This document shows positions 2,811 through 46,173 of a stretch of DNA of 56,409 nt, piece after piece; within the stretch, counting starts at the first letter, position 1, and every line of letters starts with the position of its first letter. A program made the translations under genes and the position numbers. Location of the stretch: the IMG/VR virus record IMGVR_UViG_2617270940_000006, one strand, 5' to 3'. The stretch comes from a virus. Its lineage: Duplodnaviria > Heunggongvirae > Uroviricota > Caudoviricetes. Below the pieces are notes generated by a model. The model did not search any database. It was not told where the DNA came from and was given only the letters and a program-made list of their open reading frames with translations.

Positions 2811-3129
2811 GTGTACCCCCTGATGGCCGGTGATGTAGGAAGGCCATCATTGCTCTCTATTTAAACTGAGTTTTCGACTCAAAGGTTATTTAACTGGGCT
2901 ATAGCCCATTGCGTATGTGTCATCAAATTGTGTACGGCAATTTACCGTACACGTAATATAGAGATGATTGTCACTTTTTTCAACAGACAAATGATAACAA
3001 TTACTAGCAATAGGCAATAACAACCTACTAAATAACCTTTACACCGCAGCCGTAGGCATTTAGGCTATATCGCATATAAGAAAACAAGTTGTTTCATACG
3101 ACAATAATTCACGCAAAGGAAACTCACCA

Positions 3130-3795
3130 ATGACCAAGATCATTGTGGTTGGCGGCACAAAAGGCGGCCCAGGCAAATCTACCGTTGCCCAGCAAATTGC
3201 GGTATGTCTCAAAGTTAAAAAGAAAAAGAAGGTTCACGTCACCGATATCGATATCCAGCGCACCACGACCAGCTGGTGTGAAGACCGTCGCCAGAACGAA
3301 GATCTTGAACTGATCCCGTTCGCTTATGTGCAGGACGACATCGTCAAACATCTTAAATCGCTTCAGGGGCGAACTGATTATGTAGTGGTAGATGCTGGTG
3401 GCTTTGACTCCGAAATTCAGCGTCTGGCGATGCTTATGGCTGATGTAATCATCATCCCGCTGCGCCCTAAACGTCGTGATTTGAAATCTCTGCGTGATAT
3501 CGACCCGATTATCGACAACGTTCGCAATGTGAACGAGAAAGTTAAGATCCGCGCGGTAATAAACCAGTGTCCGTCATTGCCTTCCCAGGTATCACGTATT
3601 CTAGCCGCGAAGGAAATTGTCGAAACTTTCGGCATCGAGGCTGCGCCGGTCAATCTGTACAACCGTAACGTTTATGACGATGCGGAAGAGGCAGGTCGTT
3701 CTATCTTTGAAATGACTGGCGCTGAACGCGATAAGAAGGCAGAAGCCGAGTTCGAAGAGTTTGTAGATTACATCTTGAGTCTGGAGGAAGAATAA
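3130..3795 (+). CDS. parA: ParA-family partition ATPase (small type)
   Basis: Deviant Walker A (GGTKGGPGKST); 221 aa; followed by a small overlapping partner gene. Confidence 0.85.
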   Translation: MTKIIVVGGTKGGPGKSTVAQQIAVCLKVKKKKKVHVTDIDIQRTTTSWCEDRRQNEDLELIPFAYVQDDIVKHLKSLQGRTDYVVVDAGGFDSEIQRLAMLMADVIIIPLRPKRRDLKSLRDIDPIIDNVRNVNEKVKIRAVINQCPSLPSQVSRILAAKEIVETFGIEAAPVNLYNRNVYDDAEEAGRSIFEMTGAERDKKAEAEFEEFVDYILSLEEE

Positions 3796-20452: not shown

Positions 20453-20524
20453 GATGGTGTAGCTCAGTGGTAGAGCGGTTGACTGTTAATCAACTGGTCG
20501 GTGGTTCGAGTCCACCCACCATCG
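20453..20524 (+). tRNA. tRNA-Asn (anticodon GTT)
   Basis: Hand-folded cloverleaf: 7-bp acceptor stem (GATGGTG/CACCATC), D-stem GCTC/GAGC, anticodon stem GTTGA/TCAAC with loop CTGTTAA, T-arm GGTGG-TTCGAGT-CCACC. Confidence 0.85.
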
Positions 20525-20681
20525 CCGACATAGCGCTGAACGGTTTGGATTCGCCACCACCGTCCGAACGAAAGACTCCGCAAATGTCGCCAGACCGTTC
20601 AGCGCTGTGATAGACACGGCAGACGTTTTTTTAACCATTGCTTCTAAGCATCGTAGCAACACTTTTTTCAGCGCAAAATCC

Positions 20682-34454: not shown

Positions 34455-36797
34455 ATGGCAAAAGGCAAATCCGCACTGGCACTGGCGCTGAAAAAGAAAA
34501 TCGGCAGCAATGACGAGATTCAGAAGGTCTCCCACTGGATTGACTCCGGTTTCCCTCCACTGAACAAAGCCATTTCCGGACGTTACGACGGTGGTTTTCC
34601 GTGTGGGCGTATCGTTGAAGTCTTCGGGCCACCAAGCGCGGGGAAATGTGTTACCGCAGACACCATGCTGCTGACGGAGCGTGGAATGGTAACAGTGAAA
34701 GAACTGTTTGAGATTGAGGGGCACAAAGCAACATGCACTACTCGCGATGTAGAGCATAACGTTGGACTCATCAATGAAAATGGCGTGATAGAGAAGACCT
34801 CACACCTGACATGGAACAACCGTCGCAAATTCAAGCGCATTAAGCTGGCATCAGGGGGTTACATCGAGGCTACGTTCCGTCACCCAATTCGTGTGGTTGA
34901 CGACTTAGGCAATATCGTCTGGCGGCATGCTGAAAAAATCAGTGTAGGCGACACGATTCCTTCAATGGTTGGCACACATCAATTCGGCGATCAGCACTTG
35001 GATGCCAATATCGCAAAACTGATGGGCTATTTAATTGCTGACGGATACGTGGCCTCTGAAAATTCTGTGCATTTTTCTAACACAGATCCATTCATCAAGG
35101 ATGAGTACTACCGCCTCATTTCGCTGGTATCAGACAAGATGCCAGTTACGAGAAAACATAACGGCTCGGAAGACCATGTGCTGTTTAGCAAAGAGGTGCG
35201 TTCGCTGCTTTTTAAAGAATATGGTCTGGAGTATGAGAAAGCTGCTGGCAAGCAGGTTCCGTTGAGTGTGCGTCGCGCCAATAGCGAGGCTCAAATTGCA
35301 TTCCTTCGCGGCTACTTTGAGCTGGAATGCCACGTCAATGATGGTCGCTGCATTGAGGTTGTGAGCGCGAGTGGGCTGCTGCTACAGCAAATTCGCCTCA
35401 TGCTCCTGAATCTGGGGATTGCGTCAACTATCTCTGAAAAACACGTCGCAGGTTATAAAAACATATATTACCGGCTGTCATTCAGTGGCTCTAACTACGA
35501 CCTTTTCCTGTCAACGATTGGGTTCGAGTCTCCGGCTCGTTTAGCAGTGGCAACCAAACGGGACATTAGTTTTGACCGCACTTATTTAGGCTACGTTCCG
35601 CACATCAGCGGCTTAGTGAAATCACTCTACGAGTCACTCACCAAGACCTCTCGTAAAGACTACGTTCTGGTAGATCACGTTATTGGCCGCGGCGATCGTG
35701 TCGGAATAGACAAACTGCGAGAAATCTATGTCTCCTTCATTGGCAGAAAGAATCGTTTTAACGAGCATCTGTTTGCACAACTGGCAGCGGTAATTGACTC
35801 TAACTTGTTCTACGACGAAGTCGTGGCTATTGAGGAAGGTGAAGCACCAACGTTCGACGTAGCGATGCCGGAAACACACTCTTTCTGGTCTAACGGGATT
35901 ATCAGCCACAACACATTCCTCGCGACGGCTGCGATGGTGTCAGCACAAAAACAGGATGGTCTGGCCGTATTCCTTGACCACGAAAACAGTTTCGACGTTG
36001 GTCTGGCGGTAGCGAACGGACTGAACGCCGACGAAGACGACGGTCAGTGGGTCTACAAACAGCCGGATACCTTCGAAGACTCCGTAGAGCTGATCGGCAC
36101 AATCCTCAAGCTGGTGCGCGACGAAGAGCTTATTCCGGAAACAGCCCCTATCTGCATCGTAGCCGACTCTCTGGCGTCGATGGTTCCAAACTCGAAGGCT
36201 GAGAAGTTCGACAAGATGGCAGAAGGCACTGCGAAGGACAAAGATCAGCTGAACATGAACGACAACACGGCGCTGGCGCGCGCGACAAGTGCGAACTTCC
36301 CTACTCTGGCGCTTTGGGCGCGTAAGTACAACGCGTGCATCATCTTCTTGAACCAGGTGCGTACCAAAATTGGTGTGATGTTTGGCGATCCGACTACGTC
36401 TCCGGGTGGCGACTCTCCGAAGTTCTACGCGTCGGTGCGCATCCGTCTGGGTGCATCCGTCATGAAGGATGGCAAAGAGAAGATCGGACAGGACGTTGGC
36501 GCCGAGTGCATTAAAAACAAAGTCGCGCCTCCGTTTGGCAAATGCTCATGGAAATTCTACTTCGACCCGACTCGCGGGCTGGACGTCGTCGAGTCTCTGG
36601 TTGAATACATGCTGGAGGAAGGATACCTGCCCAAGAGCGCCAGCGGGCGTGTGGAAATTGGCGAGAAGAAATACACCAAATCGCAGATCGTCGAGATGTA
36701 CCGCGAGAAGCCACTCCCGGAAATCATCGCAGCACTCCAGGCGATAGACGAACGGCGAGCGAAAGAGTCGTCACCAGCAGAGACAGAAGAAGCGTAA
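34455..36797 (+). CDS. RecA/UvsX-like recombinase interrupted by an intein
   Basis: The Walker A motif is split: GPPSAGK then Cys at codon 65, and it resumes as TFLATAAMV after ...SHN at codon 486. Removing codons 65-486 leaves a 358-aa RecA-size protein with a contiguous GPPSAGKT. Confidence 0.85.
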   Translation: MAKGKSALALALKKKIGSNDEIQKVSHWIDSGFPPLNKAISGRYDGGFPCGRIVEVFGPPSAGKCVTADTMLLTERGMVTVKELFEIEGHKATCTTRDVEHNVGLINENGVIEKTSHLTWNNRRKFKRIKLASGGYIEATFRHPIRVVDDLGNIVWRHAEKISVGDTIPSMVGTHQFGDQHLDANIAKLMGYLIADGYVASENSVHFSNTDPFIKDEYYRLISLVSDKMPVTRKHNGSEDHVLFSKEVRSLLFKEYGLEYEKAAGKQVPLSVRRANSEAQIAFLRGYFELECHVNDGRCIEVVSASGLLLQQIRLMLLNLGIASTISEKHVAGYKNIYYRLSFSGSNYDLFLSTIGFESPARLAVATKRDISFDRTYLGYVPHISGLVKSLYESLTKTSRKDYVLVDHVIGRGDRVGIDKLREIYVSFIGRKNRFNEHLFAQLAAVIDSNLFYDEVVAIEEGEAPTFDVAMPETHSFWSNGIISHNTFLATAAMVSAQKQDGLAVFLDHENSFDVGLAVANGLNADEDDGQWVYKQPDTFEDSVELIGTILKLVRDEELIPETAPICIVADSLASMVPNSKAEKFDKMAEGTAKDKDQLNMNDNTALARATSANFPTLALWARKYNACIIFLNQVRTKIGVMFGDPTTSPGGDSPKFYASVRIRLGASVMKDGKEKIGQDVGAECIKNKVAPPFGKCSWKFYFDPTRGLDVVESLVEYMLEEGYLPKSASGRVEIGEKKYTKSQIVEMYREKPLPEIIAALQAIDERRAKESSPAETEEA
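34647..35912 (+). other. Intein (422 aa) with LAGLIDADG homing-endonuclease domain
   Basis: Begins with Cys, ends with His-Asn, and is followed by Thr. Two LAGLIDADG-like blocks (LMGYLIADGYV, LRGYFELECHV). Confidence 0.8.
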
Positions 36798-37091: not shown

Positions 37092-37283
37092 ATGAAGAAA
37101 GGTTTACTGGCGGTGGCTTTGGCTGCTATTTGCACAATGGGTCTGACCGGCTGCGATCGCGTGGAACCGGGATACGTTGGCATTAAGGTAAACAAATTGG
37201 GTGAAGACAAAGGTATCGGTGAAGTTGTCGGCGTTGGCCGTCAGTGGACTGGTCTGAATACCGAGCTGTACACCTCTCTTTAA
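37092..37283 (+). pseudogene. Lipoprotein gene truncated at an IS remnant
   Basis: Lipobox LTGC; the sequence after it resembles the start of an SPFH/band-7 domain (EPGYVGIKV). The last codons and stop are supplied by IS-derived sequence. Confidence 0.4.
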
Positions 37284-37357
37284 GTCATCTTAAATGACTC
37301 TGAGGTGTCTGTTAAACCTGTGGCGATTCAGTCTATTAAACCTGTAGCGATTCACTT
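37262..37357 (-). mobile_element. IS3-family left-end remnant (inverted), with an extra 25-bp terminal-repeat copy
   Basis: The reverse complement of 37262-37331 matches 15641-15699; 37332-37357 repeats the terminal 25 bp. Confidence 0.7.
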
Positions 37358-37515
37358 TATGGTGTCATAAACTTAAATCTAGCGCCGGGTAGAACAAGTT
37401 AATCGAACGATGTAGCGGCCATTTAGGCGTTACAGAAAGAACAGAATTTTAAATTTATAGTGAAGCCGTTGCAGCAACTTTGTGGGGTGCAACCAACACT
37501 GAACAGGAAAAGAAA

Positions 37516-39945
37516 ATGGATCATAGTGTACATAACAAGCTCATCTCATTTATTTGGAACATTGCCGACGACTGTTTACGTGATGTGTACGTTCGCGGTA
37601 AGTACCGCGATGTGATTTTACCTATGGTGGTATTACGACGTTTAGATACGTTACTTGAACCCACCAAAGAAGCCGTGCTTGAAGAGGTCAAGTTCCAAAA
37701 AGAAGAGATGCAAGCCACGGAGCTTGATGATGAACCATTGAAGGCGGCTAGTGGTTATGTTTTTTACAATACATCTAAATGGACCCTGAAATCCCTGTTC
37801 AACACCGCAACGAATAACCAACAGATATTACTCGCCAACTTTGAAGAGTACCTGCTTGGCTTTAGCGATAATGTTAAAGAAATCATTGAATGCTTTAACC
37901 TCAAGTTGCAAATTCGTCACATGGCCTCAAAGCAAGTCCTTCTTGATGTCGTCGAAAAGTTTGTTTCCCCTTACATCAACTTAACTCATGAAACGGTCGA
38001 AGACCCAGATGGCAACAAGATGCCAGCCCTTACTAACCTGGGTATGGGGTACGTGTTCGAAGAGTTGATCCGTAAGTTCAACGAGGAGAATAACGAAGAA
38101 GCCGGTGAGCACTTTACACCTAGGGAAGTGATTGAGCTGATGACACACTTGGTTTTTGACCCAGTGAAAGAGCAGCTACCATTGACCATGACCGTTTACG
38201 ACCCTGCGTGTGGTAGCGGTGGTATGCTCACTGAATCTCAAAACTTCATTGAAGAGAAATACCCGAACGACAGCCGAGATATTTACCTTTACGGCAAAGA
38301 GATCAATGACGAGACCTACGCGATTTGTAAATCGGACATGATGATCAAAGGTAACAACCCTGAGAACATCAAGGTAGGCTCAACCTTGTCTACCGACGAG
38401 TTTGCGGCTTCTCGCTTTGACTTTATGTTGTCTAACCCGCCATACGGTAAGAGTTGGGCGTCTGAACAGAAGTACATTAAAGACGGCAGTGATGTGATTG
38501 ACCCGCGTTTTAAGGTTAGCCTGAAAGACTATTGGGGAAATCTCGAAGTGGTGGATGCCACGCCACGTTCGAGTGATGGCCAGCTGCTTTTCTTAATGGA
38601 GATGGTCAACAAGATGAAAGATCCGAGCGTAAGTCCATTAGGCAGCCGGATTGCCTCTGTTCATAACGGCTCATCGCTCTTTACCGGTGATGCGGGCAGT
38701 GGCGAAAGTAATATTCGTCGCTTCATCATTGAAAACGACATGCTAGATGCCATCGTTCAGTTACCTAATAACCTGTTCTATAACACTGGCATTACCACTT
38801 ACATTTGGGTGTTGAACAACAATAAACCTGAGGCGCGTAAAGGTAAGGTGCAATTAATTGATGCCAGCTTGCTCTACCGTAAGTTGCGCAAGAACTTAGG
38901 TAACAAAAACTGCGAATTTGCGCCTGAGCACATCACGGAAATTACCGATACTTACCTCGCGTGTAAGGATGTTGAAAGAGCACTGGATGCAAACAATGAT
39001 CCTGTTGGCATCGCCAGTAAGGTATTCAGCAATGACGATTTTGGCTACTACAAAGTCACTATAGAGCGCCCAGATCGCCGCAAAGCCAAGTTTACTCAAG
39101 ACGCAATAGCCCCACTGCGTTTTGATAAGCAACTTAGTGAAGTGATGGAGTACGTGTACGCAGAGCACGGCGAACGTGTTTACGAAAAAACTGGCTACGG
39201 GTCAGCTCAGAAAAAGAGCTTCTTAAAATCCATCGAGAAAGACATTCTTTCTTGGTGTGAAGATAACGACATCAGTCTCAATGCTAAGGCTAAGGCCAAA
39301 CTGCTTGATGTGAAACACTGGCTGGCGCTAAAAGCATTGCTTGAAACTGCACAAACGCTGATGGCTGACATCGGTAGCATTGAATTTGATGACTTCAATA
39401 GCTTTAAAACCCAAGTTGATAAATCGCTAAAAGCCCATGCTATTAAGCTTTCAGCACCTGAGAAAAATGCCATTCTTCACGCGGTGAGCTGGTATGACGA
39501 AACCGCCAAGAAAGTGGTTAAAAAGGTAGTTAAATTAACGGGTGATAAATTAAACGACCTGCTGGAGCGCTATGAGTGTGAAGTCGCTGACTTGCCAGAT
39601 TTTGGTTATTACCCCGTTCCTTCAGCAGAAGGCGGTAAAAAAGGCGAGTATATCACTTACGAGACCAATTCAGACCTGCGAGATACAGAATCTGTTCCAT
39701 TAAAGCAAAGCATTTACCAGTACTTCCTAGATGAAGTGAAGCCTCATGTCGATGAAGCATGGATAAACCTAGATACGGTAAAAATTGGCTATGAAATCAG
39801 CTTCAATAAGTATTTCTACCGTCATAAACCGCTGCGTAGTTTAGAAGAGGTCGCAACCGACATCATCAACCTAGAACAAAAAGCCGAAGGTCTCATTGCG
39901 CAGATATTGGGTGTTAAAGTGGCGGAAGCTCAGGGAGAAGCGTAA
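37516..39945 (+). CDS. hsdM: Type I restriction-modification methyltransferase subunit (HsdM), unusually long
   Basis: Motif I DPACGSGGML and motif IV NPPYG; about 810 aa from the ATG at 37516. Confidence 0.9.
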   Translation: MDHSVHNKLISFIWNIADDCLRDVYVRGKYRDVILPMVVLRRLDTLLEPTKEAVLEEVKFQKEEMQATELDDEPLKAASGYVFYNTSKWTLKSLFNTATNNQQILLANFEEYLLGFSDNVKEIIECFNLKLQIRHMASKQVLLDVVEKFVSPYINLTHETVEDPDGNKMPALTNLGMGYVFEELIRKFNEENNEEAGEHFTPREVIELMTHLVFDPVKEQLPLTMTVYDPACGSGGMLTESQNFIEEKYPNDSRDIYLYGKEINDETYAICKSDMMIKGNNPENIKVGSTLSTDEFAASRFDFMLSNPPYGKSWASEQKYIKDGSDVIDPRFKVSLKDYWGNLEVVDATPRSSDGQLLFLMEMVNKMKDPSVSPLGSRIASVHNGSSLFTGDAGSGESNIRRFIIENDMLDAIVQLPNNLFYNTGITTYIWVLNNNKPEARKGKVQLIDASLLYRKLRKNLGNKNCEFAPEHITEITDTYLACKDVERALDANNDPVGIASKVFSNDDFGYYKVTIERPDRRKAKFTQDAIAPLRFDKQLSEVMEYVYAEHGERVYEKTGYGSAQKKSFLKSIEKDILSWCEDNDISLNAKAKAKLLDVKHWLALKALLETAQTLMADIGSIEFDDFNSFKTQVDKSLKAHAIKLSAPEKNAILHAVSWYDETAKKVVKKVVKLTGDKLNDLLERYECEVADLPDFGYYPVPSAEGGKKGEYITYETNSDLRDTESVPLKQSIYQYFLDEVKPHVDEAWINLDTVKIGYEISFNKYFYRHKPLRSLEEVATDIINLEQKAEGLIAQILGVKVAEAQGEA

Positions 39946-41267
39946 TGGAGCGTTTAGCATTGATGCCGAAATATGAGGATTATGTAGATTCTGGAGTTGA
40001 ATGGTTAGGGGATTTACCGAGCCATTGGGACGCAGTAAAAATGAAGTTTCTTTTCAAAGATACGTCGATGAAAAACAAGCCTAACGAAACTTTATTATCT
40101 GTTACACAAAGTCAAGGTGTTGTTCCCAGAGAGTGGGTAGAAAACAGAATGGTTATGCCATCTGGCAATCTAGAAAGCTTCAAGTTCATTGCAAAAGGTG
40201 ACTTTGCTATAAGCCTTCGTTCCTTTGAAGGTGGTTTGGAGTATTGTCATCATGATGGAATCATAAGCCCTGCTTATACGGTGTTAAAAACTAAGAAAGA
40301 TTATCTACTTGCAGGATATTACAAATATTTGTTTAAAAGTCAGACTTTTATTTCAGAGTTACAAACATCGATTGTAGGGATTCGTGAAGGAAAAAACATC
40401 AGTTATGAGGAGTTGCAATATTCACTTCTTCCTATTCCGGCTGAAGAAGAACAAACCCGTATCGCCAACTTCCTCGACAAGAAAACCGCTCTAATCGACG
40501 AAGCGATTTCGATCAAAGAGCAGCAAATTAGCCTGCTGAAAGAGCGTAAGCAGATCATCATCCAACAGGCGGTGACCCAAGGGCTTGATCCCAATGTGCC
40601 AATGAAAGACTCCGGTGTGGATTGGATTGGAGATATTCCAGAGCATTGGGAAGTTGTGCCTCTAAAAAGGTTGGCGGTCTTGAGCCCTTCTGTGAAAGTT
40701 TCAAATAGAAAGTCCAAAGAATTAGTTACTTTCTTAGCGATGGAAAAGGTTTCAACAGATGGATTTATTGATCAAGATACATTAATGCCTATATGTGATG
40801 TGAGCCAAGGTTTTACGGTTTTTAACCGGGGGGATGTGATTGTTGCAAAAATTACACCTTGCTTTGAAAATGGGAAATCTGCTTGGCTTAACAATCTTCA
40901 AACTGAGTTTGGATACGGCTCAACCGAGTTTCACGTTTTAAGATGTGGTCAGAGAATTATAGGAAGTTTTCTCTACTTAATCGTTAGTTCGCCCCTTTTT
41001 CTTAATGCCGGTGAGGCTATGATGACTGGTTCAGCTGGTCAGAAGCGCGTGCCTAGTTCATTTATCCAAAACTTTCCTACCGCAATTCCCGGAGTTGCAG
41101 AGCAAGAAAAAATAGTATCAAAGGTAAAAGAGCTGTTTTCACAGATTGATGTTGTTGTGGCTTCTACGGTAAATCAAATCGAAAAGCTCAAAGAATACAA
41201 AACCACCCTGATCAACAGCGCCGTGACAGGAAAAATAAAAATCACCCCGGAAATGGTTGAGCAATAG
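39945..41267 (+). CDS. hsdS: Type I restriction-modification specificity subunit (HsdS)
   Basis: 440 aa with two repeated target-recognition-like halves and conserved central/C-terminal helices; start overlaps the hsdM stop. Confidence 0.8.
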   Translation: MERLALMPKYEDYVDSGVEWLGDLPSHWDAVKMKFLFKDTSMKNKPNETLLSVTQSQGVVPREWVENRMVMPSGNLESFKFIAKGDFAISLRSFEGGLEYCHHDGIISPAYTVLKTKKDYLLAGYYKYLFKSQTFISELQTSIVGIREGKNISYEELQYSLLPIPAEEEQTRIANFLDKKTALIDEAISIKEQQISLLKERKQIIIQQAVTQGLDPNVPMKDSGVDWIGDIPEHWEVVPLKRLAVLSPSVKVSNRKSKELVTFLAMEKVSTDGFIDQDTLMPICDVSQGFTVFNRGDVIVAKITPCFENGKSAWLNNLQTEFGYGSTEFHVLRCGQRIIGSFLYLIVSSPLFLNAGEAMMTGSAGQKRVPSSFIQNFPTAIPGVAEQEKIVSKVKELFSQIDVVVASTVNQIEKLKEYKTTLINSAVTGKIKITPEMVEQ

Positions 41268-41276
41268 GACGCGAAT

Positions 41277-42440
41277 ATGTTCACGGTAAATCATCAGGCC
41301 AATAGGATTAGTCCGGTTAAGACTAAGAGATTCAGTGAGTTGGGCTTTACTGAGCGCAAAAATCTTCAGGAATGGTTGGCACACGAGCCTTCCGCACTGG
41401 GTGAAGAGCTGCTGATTATTCAAAAAGAGTTCGATGGCTTTGATGACACCCGTGAACGCTTAGATTTACTGGCACTGGATAAAGATGGCAACTTGGTCAT
41501 TATTGAAAACAAGCTGGACGACAGTGGCCGCGATGTGGTGTGGCAGGCGCTTAAATATGCCTCTTACTGTGCCAGTTTAACCAAAGCGCAAATCGTTGAA
41601 ATTTACCAGCAGTACTTAGACCGCTATGAGCATGTAACAGGAGAGGTTGACTTGTTTAATACCCCTGCAAGTGCCTCTGCTAGAATATGTGAGTTTTTGG
41701 ATGCGCCCGATCTCGATGAGTTAAAGCTCAACCTGGGTAACAGCCAGCGCATTATGTTAGTTGCGGCAAACTTTCGCAAAGAAGTGACCTGCACCGCGCT
41801 GTGGTTATTGGGTCAAGGCATTAGCATTGCCTGCTTCAAAATCACGCCTTATTCACTGGGTGAACAGCTACTGATTAATATTGACCAGATCATTCCAACG
41901 CCAGAAGCGAAAGAGTTGATGATCGGCATTAATGCCAAGGAAGCGGAAGAAAAAACCACCGAAGTGGTACTAAAAAACCGCCATACCGTGCGTCGCAAGT
42001 ACTGGGAGCGTGCCTTAGAGGCGTTTCAGAAAAGCGCTTGCCAACTCTATAACAACATTAGCCCAAGCAAAGATCATTGGTTATCAGCAGGCTCAGGGCT
42101 AAGTGGATGTCCGTATAACCTGATATTTCTGCAAAAAGAGCTTCGAGTAGAGCTTTGGATCAGCCGTGGGGTTACCGAAGAGAATAAATACCTTTTTGAT
42201 TTGTTGAGTCAGTCCAAACAAGACATTGAGCATACTTTTGGTGCAGAACTTGAGTGGATGAGGCTGGATGAGAAGAAATCTTGCCGTATCCAGTTTTCGA
42301 CCAAAGCTGACGGGTTTAACAAAGAGACTTGGCCCCAAGCGGTTGCGTGGCACTTAGAGCAGATGACAAAGTTAGAAAAAGCCTTGAAAGGACCGCTGCA
42401 AAAAGCGGCTGAAGCAATGAAACAGAAGAATTTTGATTAA
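41277..42440 (+). CDS. PD-(D/E)xK-like protein embedded between hsdS and hsdR
   Basis: 387 aa; N-terminal D...ENK arrangement (DLLALDKDGNLVIIENK) suggests a restriction-endonuclease-like fold; function unknown. Confidence 0.5.
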   Translation: MFTVNHQANRISPVKTKRFSELGFTERKNLQEWLAHEPSALGEELLIIQKEFDGFDDTRERLDLLALDKDGNLVIIENKLDDSGRDVVWQALKYASYCASLTKAQIVEIYQQYLDRYEHVTGEVDLFNTPASASARICEFLDAPDLDELKLNLGNSQRIMLVAANFRKEVTCTALWLLGQGISIACFKITPYSLGEQLLINIDQIIPTPEAKELMIGINAKEAEEKTTEVVLKNRHTVRRKYWERALEAFQKSACQLYNNISPSKDHWLSAGSGLSGCPYNLIFLQKELRVELWISRGVTEENKYLFDLLSQSKQDIEHTFGAELEWMRLDEKKSCRIQFSTKADGFNKETWPQAVAWHLEQMTKLEKALKGPLQKAAEAMKQKNFD

Positions 42441-42454
42441 GGGAATTTACAATT

Positions 42455-46173
<3,719 letters not shown>

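Follow-up and report, generated by a model that had tools for sequence, protein, structure and literature searches.

What is the 422-codon insert that interrupts the recombinase gene of the window, as we call the whole 56,409-nt stretch of DNA analyzed here; to what kind of element does the interrupted gene belong; and does the insert still move?

Anatomy of the interrupted recombinase gene

A sequence-only reading had placed a LAGLIDADG intein at codons 65 to 486 (nt 34647 to 35912) of a 780-aa recombinase ORF, and both the coordinates and the ORF length proved exact. The gene is spaced 2 nt from the upstream ORF and has an AAAGGAG ribosome-binding site 7 nt upstream. Its parts are as follows.

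34455..36797, + strand: precursor gene of the intein-interrupted RecA-family recombinase, 780 aa plus stop (exact protein WP_032187685.1)
34455..34646, + strand: N-extein, aa 1-64, whose C-terminal end is formed by the Walker A residues GPPSAGK
34647..35912, + strand: intein, 422 aa, Cys65 to Asn486, recognized by Pfam and NCBIfam intein models, by its exact absence in SSU5, and by a predicted fold resembling solved endonuclease-containing inteins
34647..34676, + strand: splicing block A, CVTADTMLLT, with the nucleophile Cys1
34854..34895, + strand: splicing block B, GGYIEATFRHPIRV, with the T-x-x-H motif (intein Thr76 to His79), within the TIGR01445 match
35019..35045, + strand: first LAGLIDADG motif, LMGYLIADG, acidic Asp at intein residue 132, aligned to LLGYYVSEG of PI-PkoII
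35304..35330, + strand: second LAGLIDADG motif, LRGYFELEC, acidic Glu at intein residue 227, aligned to LEGYFIGDG of PI-PkoII
35847..35912, + strand: splicing blocks F and G, PTFDVAMPETHSFW...NGIISHN, with the block F Asp and His, the penultimate His, and the terminal Asn
35913..36797, + strand: C-extein, aa 487-780, including ICIVADS, a Walker B-like segment, along with the RecA core

In the precursor, GPPSAGK spans aa 58 to 64, with Cys next at aa 65; the insert ends with His-Asn at aa 485 and 486, ahead of Thr487. Thus, the split Walker A motif, the initial Cys, and the His-Asn before Thr were all present as claimed, and removal of codons 65 to 486 restores GPPSAGKT in a 358-aa protein. Thr487, the first C-extein residue (Thr+1), serves as Walker A threonine and splice nucleophile alike. 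The T-x-x-H motif of block B reads T-F-R-H (intein residues 76 to 79), and blocks F and G read FDVAMPETHSF...NGIISHN; the hallmarks of a class-1 intein (Cys1, T-x-x-H, block F Asp/His, His-Asn, and Thr+1) and all splice-junction blocks are in place.

Profile searches agreed with this layout. Three Pfam families matched the precursor, all above their gathering scores: RecA (1.3e-36), LAGLIDADG_3 (9.5e-18, in two stretches), and Intein_splicing (7.9e-12). TIGR01445 (intein_Nterm) covered aa 65 to 147, starting at model position 1, and TIGR01443 (intein_Cterm) covered aa 466 to 487 with 17.8 bits against a cutoff of 15.6. The two LAGLIDADG-like blocks noticed earlier were recovered as the motifs listed above, both invariant in 25 of 25 intein copies. 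The Glu of the second falls, by alignment, on the catalytic Asp column of PI-PkoII, and its last residue is Cys, not Gly.

We further compared an AF2 model of the intein (pLDDT 79, pTM 0.85; low-confidence loops include residues 134 to 144 and 168 to 171) with solved structures. The top Foldseek match was the TliVMA intein (7qss; E, 2.7e-20; TM, 0.69), and PI-PfuI, PI-PkoII, and PI-SceI were the other best matches. In this predicted, rather than solved, structure, the Hint fold matched solved inteins with a probability of 1.00, and the model appears to adopt the pseudo-dimeric alpha-beta-beta-alpha-beta-beta-alpha fold of PI-PfuI, PI-PkoII, PI-SceI, and I-DmoI.

These data bear on whether the 422-aa segment might instead be an insertion domain native to the recombinase, or else a BIL-type Hint domain that does not splice; we consider either vanishingly improbable. 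Such a domain would split the indispensable Walker A motif; its class-1 splice residues are complete, its fold matches solved inteins, and it is absent to the nucleotide from the recA of SSU5 and from about 630 other empty alleles. The insert aligned to inteins and to no recombinase domain, and a native recombinase domain was ruled out by the exact empty alleles together with the family and fold matches.

The GC content is 48% in the intein, 54 to 55% in the exteins, and 48% on average in the window. Low intein GC is a suggestive but weak sign of foreign origin, given that the window as a whole has the same average, and it was set aside.

Host gene and earlier record of the intein

The joined extein aligned to E. 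coli RecA with E values of about 1e-32 to 1e-35, placing GPPSAGKT on GPESSGKT, and far more weakly to UvsX (1e-8 versus about 1e-35). The exteins therefore belong to the RecA family; of the earlier label "RecA/UvsX-like," the RecA part stands and the UvsX part was too broad. Pfam RecA scored 126.9 bits against a cutoff of 27, whereas the bacterial RecA equivalog TIGR02012 scored 135 bits, under its 325-bit cutoff, and the protein is therefore a phage-type RecA-family member, not a chromosomal RecA orthologue. Intein-less alleles exist in related elements, including phage SSU5, whose 1,077-nt recA equals N-extein plus C-extein in a gap-free alignment and differs from the window exteins by 36 nt and 4 aa (97% identity). 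The host gene of the intein belongs to SSU5-type phage-plasmids and is not chromosomal recA. With the gene on a phage-plasmid, any regulatory role proposed for an "E. coli RecA intein" reads differently. SSU5-type phage-plasmids also carry resistance genes.

The novelty implied by the sequence-only reading did not hold. Table 1 of Topilina et al. (2015, NAR 43:6631; PMC4513877) lists a RecA insertion point, c2, at residues 65 to 486, with E. coli, Enterobacter (Enterobacter cloacae), and Salmonella (Salmonella enterica) as hosts. By residue range and host genera, both of which are identical, the window intein is the catalogued, already known RecA c2 intein. That paper treats the c2 gene as bacterial RecA, the words phage and prophage are absent from it, and none of its plasmid passages that were retrieved concerns the c2 recA gene (PMC4513877). 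A literature search for inteins in connection with SSU5, pHCM2, or phage-plasmids returned nothing relevant, and only Topilina 2015 covers the element. Many plasmid records carry the PGAP product name "intein-containing recombinase RecA." Since standard pipelines recognize the intein and it has been in the literature since 2015, the annotation value of the present finding is small. A word-indexed protein search gave only 14 matches, among which the full-length cluster was missing; an exact look-up recovered it.

Altogether, we hold with high confidence that the insert is a class-1 intein with a two-motif LAGLIDADG endonuclease, located at GPPSAGK/T (the slash marks the insertion point) of an SSU5-type phage-plasmid RecA-family recombinase, and that it is RecA c2. 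In the mechanism that we propose, the split P-loop would leave the 780-aa precursor unable to bind ATP. An N-S acyl shift started by Cys1 would come first, Thr+1 (the Walker A threonine) would attack the thioester, and cyclization of Asn422 would free the intein and join the exteins into an active 358-aa recombinase.

Distribution, flanks, and mobility

In PLSDB, the intein was present in 248 of 763 plasmids carrying an SSU5-type recA (~33%), and IMG/VR held 27 occupied and 51 empty recA alleles. Empty recA sites amount to about 630 in total, several hundred of them in PLSDB, and include all pMT1 plasmids of Yersinia pestis and nearly all pHCM2 plasmids of Salmonella Typhi; each of three backbone clades contains both occupied and empty alleles. 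All 25 full-length intein copies are intact, with no stop codon. In two truncated copies, L007 and L008, the N-extein is missing together with the 5' portion of the intein; the L008 fragment adjoins an AAA ATPase gene, and the genes flanking L007 are unrelated. From the missing parts and the adjoining genes, we read both as probable deletion derivatives rather than mini-inteins.

Intein copies were 97 to 100% identical across the three backbone lineages, while the exteins differed by 15 to 18%. Between clades, the 25 occupied alleles showed an extein divergence of 15 to 18% versus 0.6 to 3% for the intein (minimum, 0). Compared with Klebsiella pDD521.1, for example, the window was 99.8% identical in the intein, 84 to 85% in the exteins, and 82.7% in the upstream 1.2 kb. 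The intein of an E. coli "Cyrano-like" clade was 2 to 3% diverged from that of the other two clades, as would fit one invasion of the Cyrano-like clade followed by vertical inheritance. The dN/dS ratio was 0.09 to 0.25 for the whole intein and 0.11 to 0.20 for the endonuclease part; the endonuclease domain is thus under purifying selection.

Two short extein segments next to the insertion point accompany the intein in every occupied allele.

34638..34646, + strand: 5' flank, GCG GGG AAA
35913..35920, + strand: 3' flank, ACA TTC CT

The synonymous form GCG GGG AAA/ACA TTC was found in 28 of 28 occupied alleles with both flanks readable versus 0 of 54 empty alleles (Fisher p = 1.5e-22). With the intein-type flanks around the site defined as GCGGGGAAA and ACATTCCT, none of the about 630 empty sites in IMG/VR and PLSDB had them; the only half-sites found combined GCGGGGAAA upstream with ACG or ACC downstream. 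When the intein-type junction was joined without the intein, using each lineage's own flanking sequence, PLSDB held no perfect contiguous match, the best matches being 88.6%, 91.4%, and 94.3% among 214, 284, and 77 records, respectively. NZ_CP083480.1 matched the intein-type junction just 2 nt past the junction. Accordingly, neither a naive target nor a footprint of precise loss with intein-type flanks was present in IMG/VR or PLSDB. Within one clade, the co-conversion tracts ranged from position -7 only to positions -19 to -7. We read GCG GGG AAA as a putative co-conversion tract, although part of the linkage could be due to hitchhiking out of a single original donor, not to repeated recent events. 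As judged from these alleles, the population pattern is one of horizontal spread with flank co-conversion.

In the second part of the proposed mechanism, the freed intein or the precursor would cut the intein-less recA of co-resident or co-infecting phage-plasmids at GK/T, and repair from the occupied allele would copy the intein with about 3 to 20 nt of flanking extein. Splicing, DNA cleavage, and the homing event are all steps that we infer; for site-specific cleavage of the intein-less allele, the horizontal spread, the flank co-conversion, and the purifying selection give indirect support. That the intein is a currently active homing element, a natural gene drive, among the SSU5-type phage-plasmids of clinical Escherichia, Klebsiella, and Enterobacter is a tentative proposal that may well prove wrong. 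Under it, synonymous changes at -7, -4, and +3 would make the remaining empty alleles poor substrates and so let them persist. The element has not swept, since only about one third of the related plasmids are occupied, and the absent sweep would also fit a weak or inactive endonuclease or resistant target sites.

We accordingly considered that the intein splices with a now inactive endonuclease, moves by ordinary homologous recombination between co-resident elements, and persists because its loss must be precise. The occupancy of only about 33% fits this account, as does the lack, in IMG/VR and PLSDB, of a matching-flank empty allele that would demonstrate a susceptible target; SSU5-type elements are, moreover, mosaic and have their own recombinase. 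However, in three independent backbones, both ends of the exchanged segment lie within about 3 to 20 nt of the intein boundaries, as expected for break repair at the site and not for recombination with random endpoints. The low dN/dS of the endonuclease part, the invariance of both catalytic acidic residues in 25 of 25 copies, and the occurrence of identical 1,266-nt inteins in backbones 16% diverged also speak against it. On balance, we regard loss of endonuclease activity as rather doubtful.

A third account holds that the intein has been co-opted as a conditional protein splicing switch that would keep the recombinase inactive until signaled, for instance by redox state, single-stranded DNA (ssDNA), or DNA damage. 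A switch has reportedly been shown at the homologous site of Pyrococcus horikoshii RadA, where ssDNA is said to be among the controls of splicing. The window intein shares its insertion point with the P. horikoshii RadA intein, the splicing of which is also controlled by its exteins (PMC4513877), and a catalytic Cys1 in the intein and a Cys50 in the N-extein are present here. Nonetheless, two thirds of the related elements do well without the intein, the distribution resembles that of a selfish element, and a RadA-type intein-extein lock could not be modeled on the E. coli RecA precursor by Topilina et al. (PMC4513877). Co-option is therefore improbable.

If homing is indeed active, what had been called "the first E. 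coli intein" would turn out to be a parasite of phage-plasmids, and its spread would report co-infection networks among them. Three diverged lineages with several hundred sequenced alleles, occupied and empty, make the locus an unusually clean natural record of intein homing, one that shows short, variable co-conversion tracts and no matching-flank empty site. With these data, the specificity of the endonuclease and the immunity of target sites can be tested directly, in E. coli as a tractable system.

Comparison with known inteins

The RecA c2 intein of Topilina et al. (PMC4513877) has the same host protein, GK/T insertion point in the P-loop, residue range (65 to 486), and genera. The element itself does not differ; the gene is assigned there to bacterial RecA and here to SSU5-type phage-plasmids. 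The P. horikoshii RadA intein (c1; PDB 4e2t), of class 1 like the window intein, occupies the homologous position, where the P-loop of a RecA-superfamily ATPase ends; its splicing domain folds like that of the window intein (Foldseek E, 3.7e-5). It is, however, an archaeal, thermophilic mini-intein without an endonuclease, to which the window intein is unrelated in sequence beyond the Hint fold, and Topilina et al. inferred independent invasions for the RadA and RecA P-loop inteins (PMC4513877).

Mycobacterium tuberculosis PI-MtuI (site a) and the Mycobacterium leprae RecA intein (site b) are, like the window intein, LAGLIDADG-type inteins in RecA, but they lie at residues 252 and 206, respectively, at the monomer interface and not in the P-loop (PMC4513877). 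The mycobacterial splicing domain is only distantly similar to that of the window intein (2in0; E, about 2e-3). TliVMA (7qss), PI-PfuI (1dq3), and PI-PkoII (2cw7) combine a Hint domain with a double LAGLIDADG domain, as the window intein does. They gave the best structural matches (TM, 0.62 to 0.69) and the best endonuclease-domain sequence matches (E, 1e-7); nonetheless, they are archaeal, reside in other host proteins, and share only 16 to 21% identity with the window intein.

Inteins in other RecA genes (P0004 to P0014) use the same GK/T site (GPESSGK/C...SHN/TT) and are 27 to 45% identical to the window intein. One of them interrupts a chromosomal recA (GCA_027484465.1, 550-kb contig), and in several (P0007, P0013, and P0014) the endonuclease region is shortened or degenerate, unlike that of the window intein. 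By their shared site and level of identity, these inteins and that of the window form an allelic family.

Anatomy of the recA precursor

The 780-aa recombinase recognized in the sequence-only reading is encoded at 34455-36797 (+), beginning 2 nt past the preceding ORF. The insert assigned there to codons 65-486 occupies nt 34647-35912 exactly, with Cys65 first, His485-Asn486 last, and Thr487 immediately following; its removal indeed leaves a 358-aa protein with an intact GPPSAGKT.

Features of the precursor and its insert
7 nt upstream of the recA precursor ORF, ribosome-binding site AAAGGAG
precursor aa 58-64, GPPSAGK, Walker A, N-extein side
intein residues 76-79, block B, T-F-R-H
block F, F-D-V...T-H-S-F
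block G, S-H-N

Three Pfam families exceeded their gathering scores on the precursor: RecA (1.3e-36; one piece before the insert and one after it), LAGLIDADG_3 (two stretches, 9.5e-18), and Intein_splicing (7.9e-12). The NCBIfam models placed the boundaries, with position 1 of intein_Nterm (TIGR01445) falling on aa 65 and the intein_Cterm (TIGR01443) match ending at aa 487. The class-1 residues are complete (Cys1, blocks B, F, and G, and Thr+1). Moreover, the two expected LAGLIDADG-like blocks are LMGYLIADG and LRGYFELEC, both of which align on the PI-PkoII motifs and carry Asp and Glu, respectively, in the catalytic columns.

The host protein had been described as RecA/UvsX-like. The joined exteins matched bacterial RecA structures (E ~1e-32 to 1e-35), with GPPSAGKT lying on GPESSGKT, while the UvsX half of the description fared far worse (1e-8). 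The extein scored below the NCBIfam RecA equivalog cut-off (135 versus 325 bits), which makes it a phage-type RecA-family protein and not the chromosomal RecA orthologue.

From what is established for class-1 inteins, the precursor, with its P-loop split, would be inactive as an ATPase. Splicing would proceed by an N-S acyl shift at Cys1, transesterification with Thr+1 as the attacker, cyclization of Asn422 to free the intein, and an O-N shift completing the peptide bond and restoring GPPSAGKT. Because Thr+1 is the indispensable Walker A threonine, imprecise loss would be intolerable to host and intein alike, which would explain stable residence at this site between Lys and Thr (GK/T).

Genomic setting and intein-less relatives

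The recA gene matched 763 PLSDB plasmids from Klebsiella, Escherichia, Enterobacter, Yersinia (pMT1), Salmonella (pHCM2), and Citrobacter, the majority typed IncFIB and non-mobilizable, as well as SSU5-type phages. The sequence-only reading had proposed a search for intein-less relatives and had named alignment of the segment to a native recombinase domain as one refutation. The 1077-nt recA of phage SSU5 aligned without gaps to the N- plus C-extein (36 nt and 4 aa differences), and the reading therefore withstood this test. That the insert is a native or non-splicing domain has a negligible chance of being true and is ruled out by such exact empty alleles.

The precursor is identical to WP_032187685.1, whose 90% cluster holds 1,496 member sequences, some on at least 1,000 contigs. 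Escherichia coli plasmid pYUXYEH3934-1 is collinear with the window from 21464 onward (99.98% identity over 21464-50000). The first 21.4 kb (1-21463) has no counterpart in this closest plasmid, which carries at that position an IS26-bounded resistance region with blaCTX-M-14, fosA3, dfrA14, qnrS1, and tet(A). SSU5 homology ends at ~37275; of the SPFH/band-7 gene, the next one after recA in SSU5, the window therefore keeps only a 63-codon stub (37092-37283). Immediately beyond recA, the window carries a type I restriction-modification cluster (37092-45472 region). DnaE is a frequent intein host; the length of the dnaE-like product gives no hint of an insert.

Other features of the window
3118-3198 (-), tRNA-Lys(ttt)
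20453-20526 (+), tRNA-Asn(gtt), the only one of the two tRNAs to reach the Rfam gathering score
27409-30915, plasmid-borne DNA polymerase III alpha, dnaE-like, 1168 aa, in one replication/recombination module with recA
37516-39945, hsdM
39945-41267, hsdS
41277-42440, DUF4268 gene
42455-45472, hsdR

Occupancy, flanks, and proposed homing

Among the 763 PLSDB records with recA, 248 carried the intein. Its frequency was ~59% in Escherichia, 45% in Enterobacter, and 23% in Klebsiella, and it occurred in 1/49 Salmonella and 0/63 Yersinia records. Exact-pattern scans of IMG/VR gave 27 occupied and 51 empty sites. When backbones were clustered by distal extein sequence, both states occurred in every one of the three main clades.

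Occupied and empty alleles by backbone clade
E. coli Cyrano-like clade, 10 occupied, 21 empty
Klebsiella clade, 6 occupied, 15 empty
SSU5-like clade, 9 occupied, 5 empty

Between clades, exteins diverged by 15-18%, whereas inteins diverged by just 0.6-3.0%, and identical 1266-nt copies were found in Klebsiella and SSU5-like backbones. The window intein shares 99.8% identity with that of Klebsiella pDD521.1, against 84-85% for the exteins and 82.7% for the upstream 1.2 kb. A conditional-splicing switch, as for Pho RadA, is improbable, given that the intein is missing from two thirds of relatives and that no point in the present data supports it.

GCG GGG AAA/ACA TTC (slash, insertion point) flanked the intein in all 28 occupied alleles with both flanks readable, while empty alleles of each clade showed synonymous differences at -7 and +3 and, in two clades, also at -4. 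The full intein-type combination occurred at 0/54 empty sites (Fisher p = 1.5e-22 versus occupied alleles). Furthermore, PLSDB queries with the intein-type junction minus the intein, in each lineage's own flanking sequence, returned no perfect contiguous match (best 88.6%, 91.4%, and 94.3% among 214, 284, and 77 records); the sole 100% match ends 2 nt beyond the junction. Five of the 54 empty sites, among IMG/VR loci L015-L065, combine the intein-type upstream flank GCGGGGAAA with ACG or ACC downstream, which is not of the intein type, as does one PLSDB record, NZ_CP083480.1 (37147-37166). Such half-sites may have been left by partial co-conversion, or by recombination with an empty allele that removed the intein.

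The donor-type tract ranges from -7 only to -19..-7 in the Cyrano-like clade and is confined to -7, -4, and +3 in the Klebsiella clade. End points this near to both intein edges, recurring in three backbones, are what site-specific break repair, not general recombination, would predict. This pattern disfavors the unlikely, if still sizeable, alternative that the endonuclease is now inactive and that the intein spread by general recombination; purifying selection disfavors it as well. The reading frame is open in each of the 25 full-length copies, the splice residues and LAGLIDADG motifs do not vary among them, and dN/dS was 0.09-0.25 for the whole intein (0.02-0.06 in the N-terminal splicing region, 0.11-0.20 in the endonuclease region); thus, the endonuclease has been kept under constraint. 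One occupied copy (IMGVR_UViG_3300028993_000030, L071) has an in-frame 6-nt deletion in the endonuclease domain that removes Phe-Glu (intein residues 293-294), with unaltered splice junctions. We infer that the intein would splice and cleave empty sites, and that homing would take place in a cell holding both an occupied and an empty phage-plasmid.

Variant copies and relation to known inteins

The most diverged copy (92.3% nt), in E. albertii p3RM15112 (CP043255.1, 1309-3153; L006), retains an open intein ORF and has no annotated CDS. Its C-extein is frameshifted, so the reading frame stops ~500 nt early, and it is an intact intein within a dead host gene. Remnants in NZ_CP075717.1 (L007, 2501-3084; query positions 683-1266) and CP057895.1 (L008, 2501-2743; query positions 1024-1266) are joined to intact C-exteins but have lost the N-extein together with the 5' portion of the intein; their ORFs retain blocks F and G and Thr+1. 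The L008 fragment directly adjoins the AAA ATPase gene, and everything from dnaE to the recA 5' end is therefore missing. We read both as probable deletion derivatives.

Table 1 of Topilina et al. 2015 (NAR 43:6631, PMC4513877) enters the intein as 'c2 (65-486)' in eight E. coli strains, Enterobacter cloacae BWH 29, Enterobacter sp. MGH 26, and Salmonella enterica 557928, and places c2 precisely at the archaeal RadA intein point in the P-loop, a known hot spot. The words phage and prophage are absent from that paper, and its retrieved passages on plasmids do not concern intein-bearing recA. In PGAP annotation, many copies already appear as 'intein-containing recombinase RecA' or as 'LAGLIDADG family homing endonuclease'. 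With this listing and these names, the finding is correct and already known: the initial observation is confirmed, its interpretation supported, and the element previously known. No paper linking inteins with SSU5-type elements was found in the searchable literature library. Our analysis adds the assignment of the intein to phage-plasmids and, from comparison of alleles, a clean homing signature.

An AlphaFold2 model of the intein, built on ten homologues (pLDDT 79, pTM 0.85), matched the solved endonuclease-containing intein TliVMA (7qss; E 2.7e-20, TM 0.69) and likewise PI-PfuI, PI-PkoII, and PI-SceI, whereas mini-inteins, including Pho RadA and Mtu RecA, matched the splicing domain only. 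The best intein-containing NCBIfam models for the precursor were the archaeal replication factor C small subunit and IF-2, whose alignments start shortly before the intein, in the host P-loop (protein aa 57 and 53); this hints that inteins inserted in the P-loops of different proteins are related. Inteins with 27-45% identity occupy the same GK/T site in other RecA genes (P0007/L093, GCA_027484465.1, 3001-5166; P0010; P0013; P0014). In an uncultured bacterium, the host gene of one GK/T intein is a chromosomal recA, located on a 550-kb contig, and in several of the 27-45% identical inteins the endonuclease region is shortened or degenerate. Thus, the c2 allelic family is wider than the 2015 Enterobacteriaceae list.
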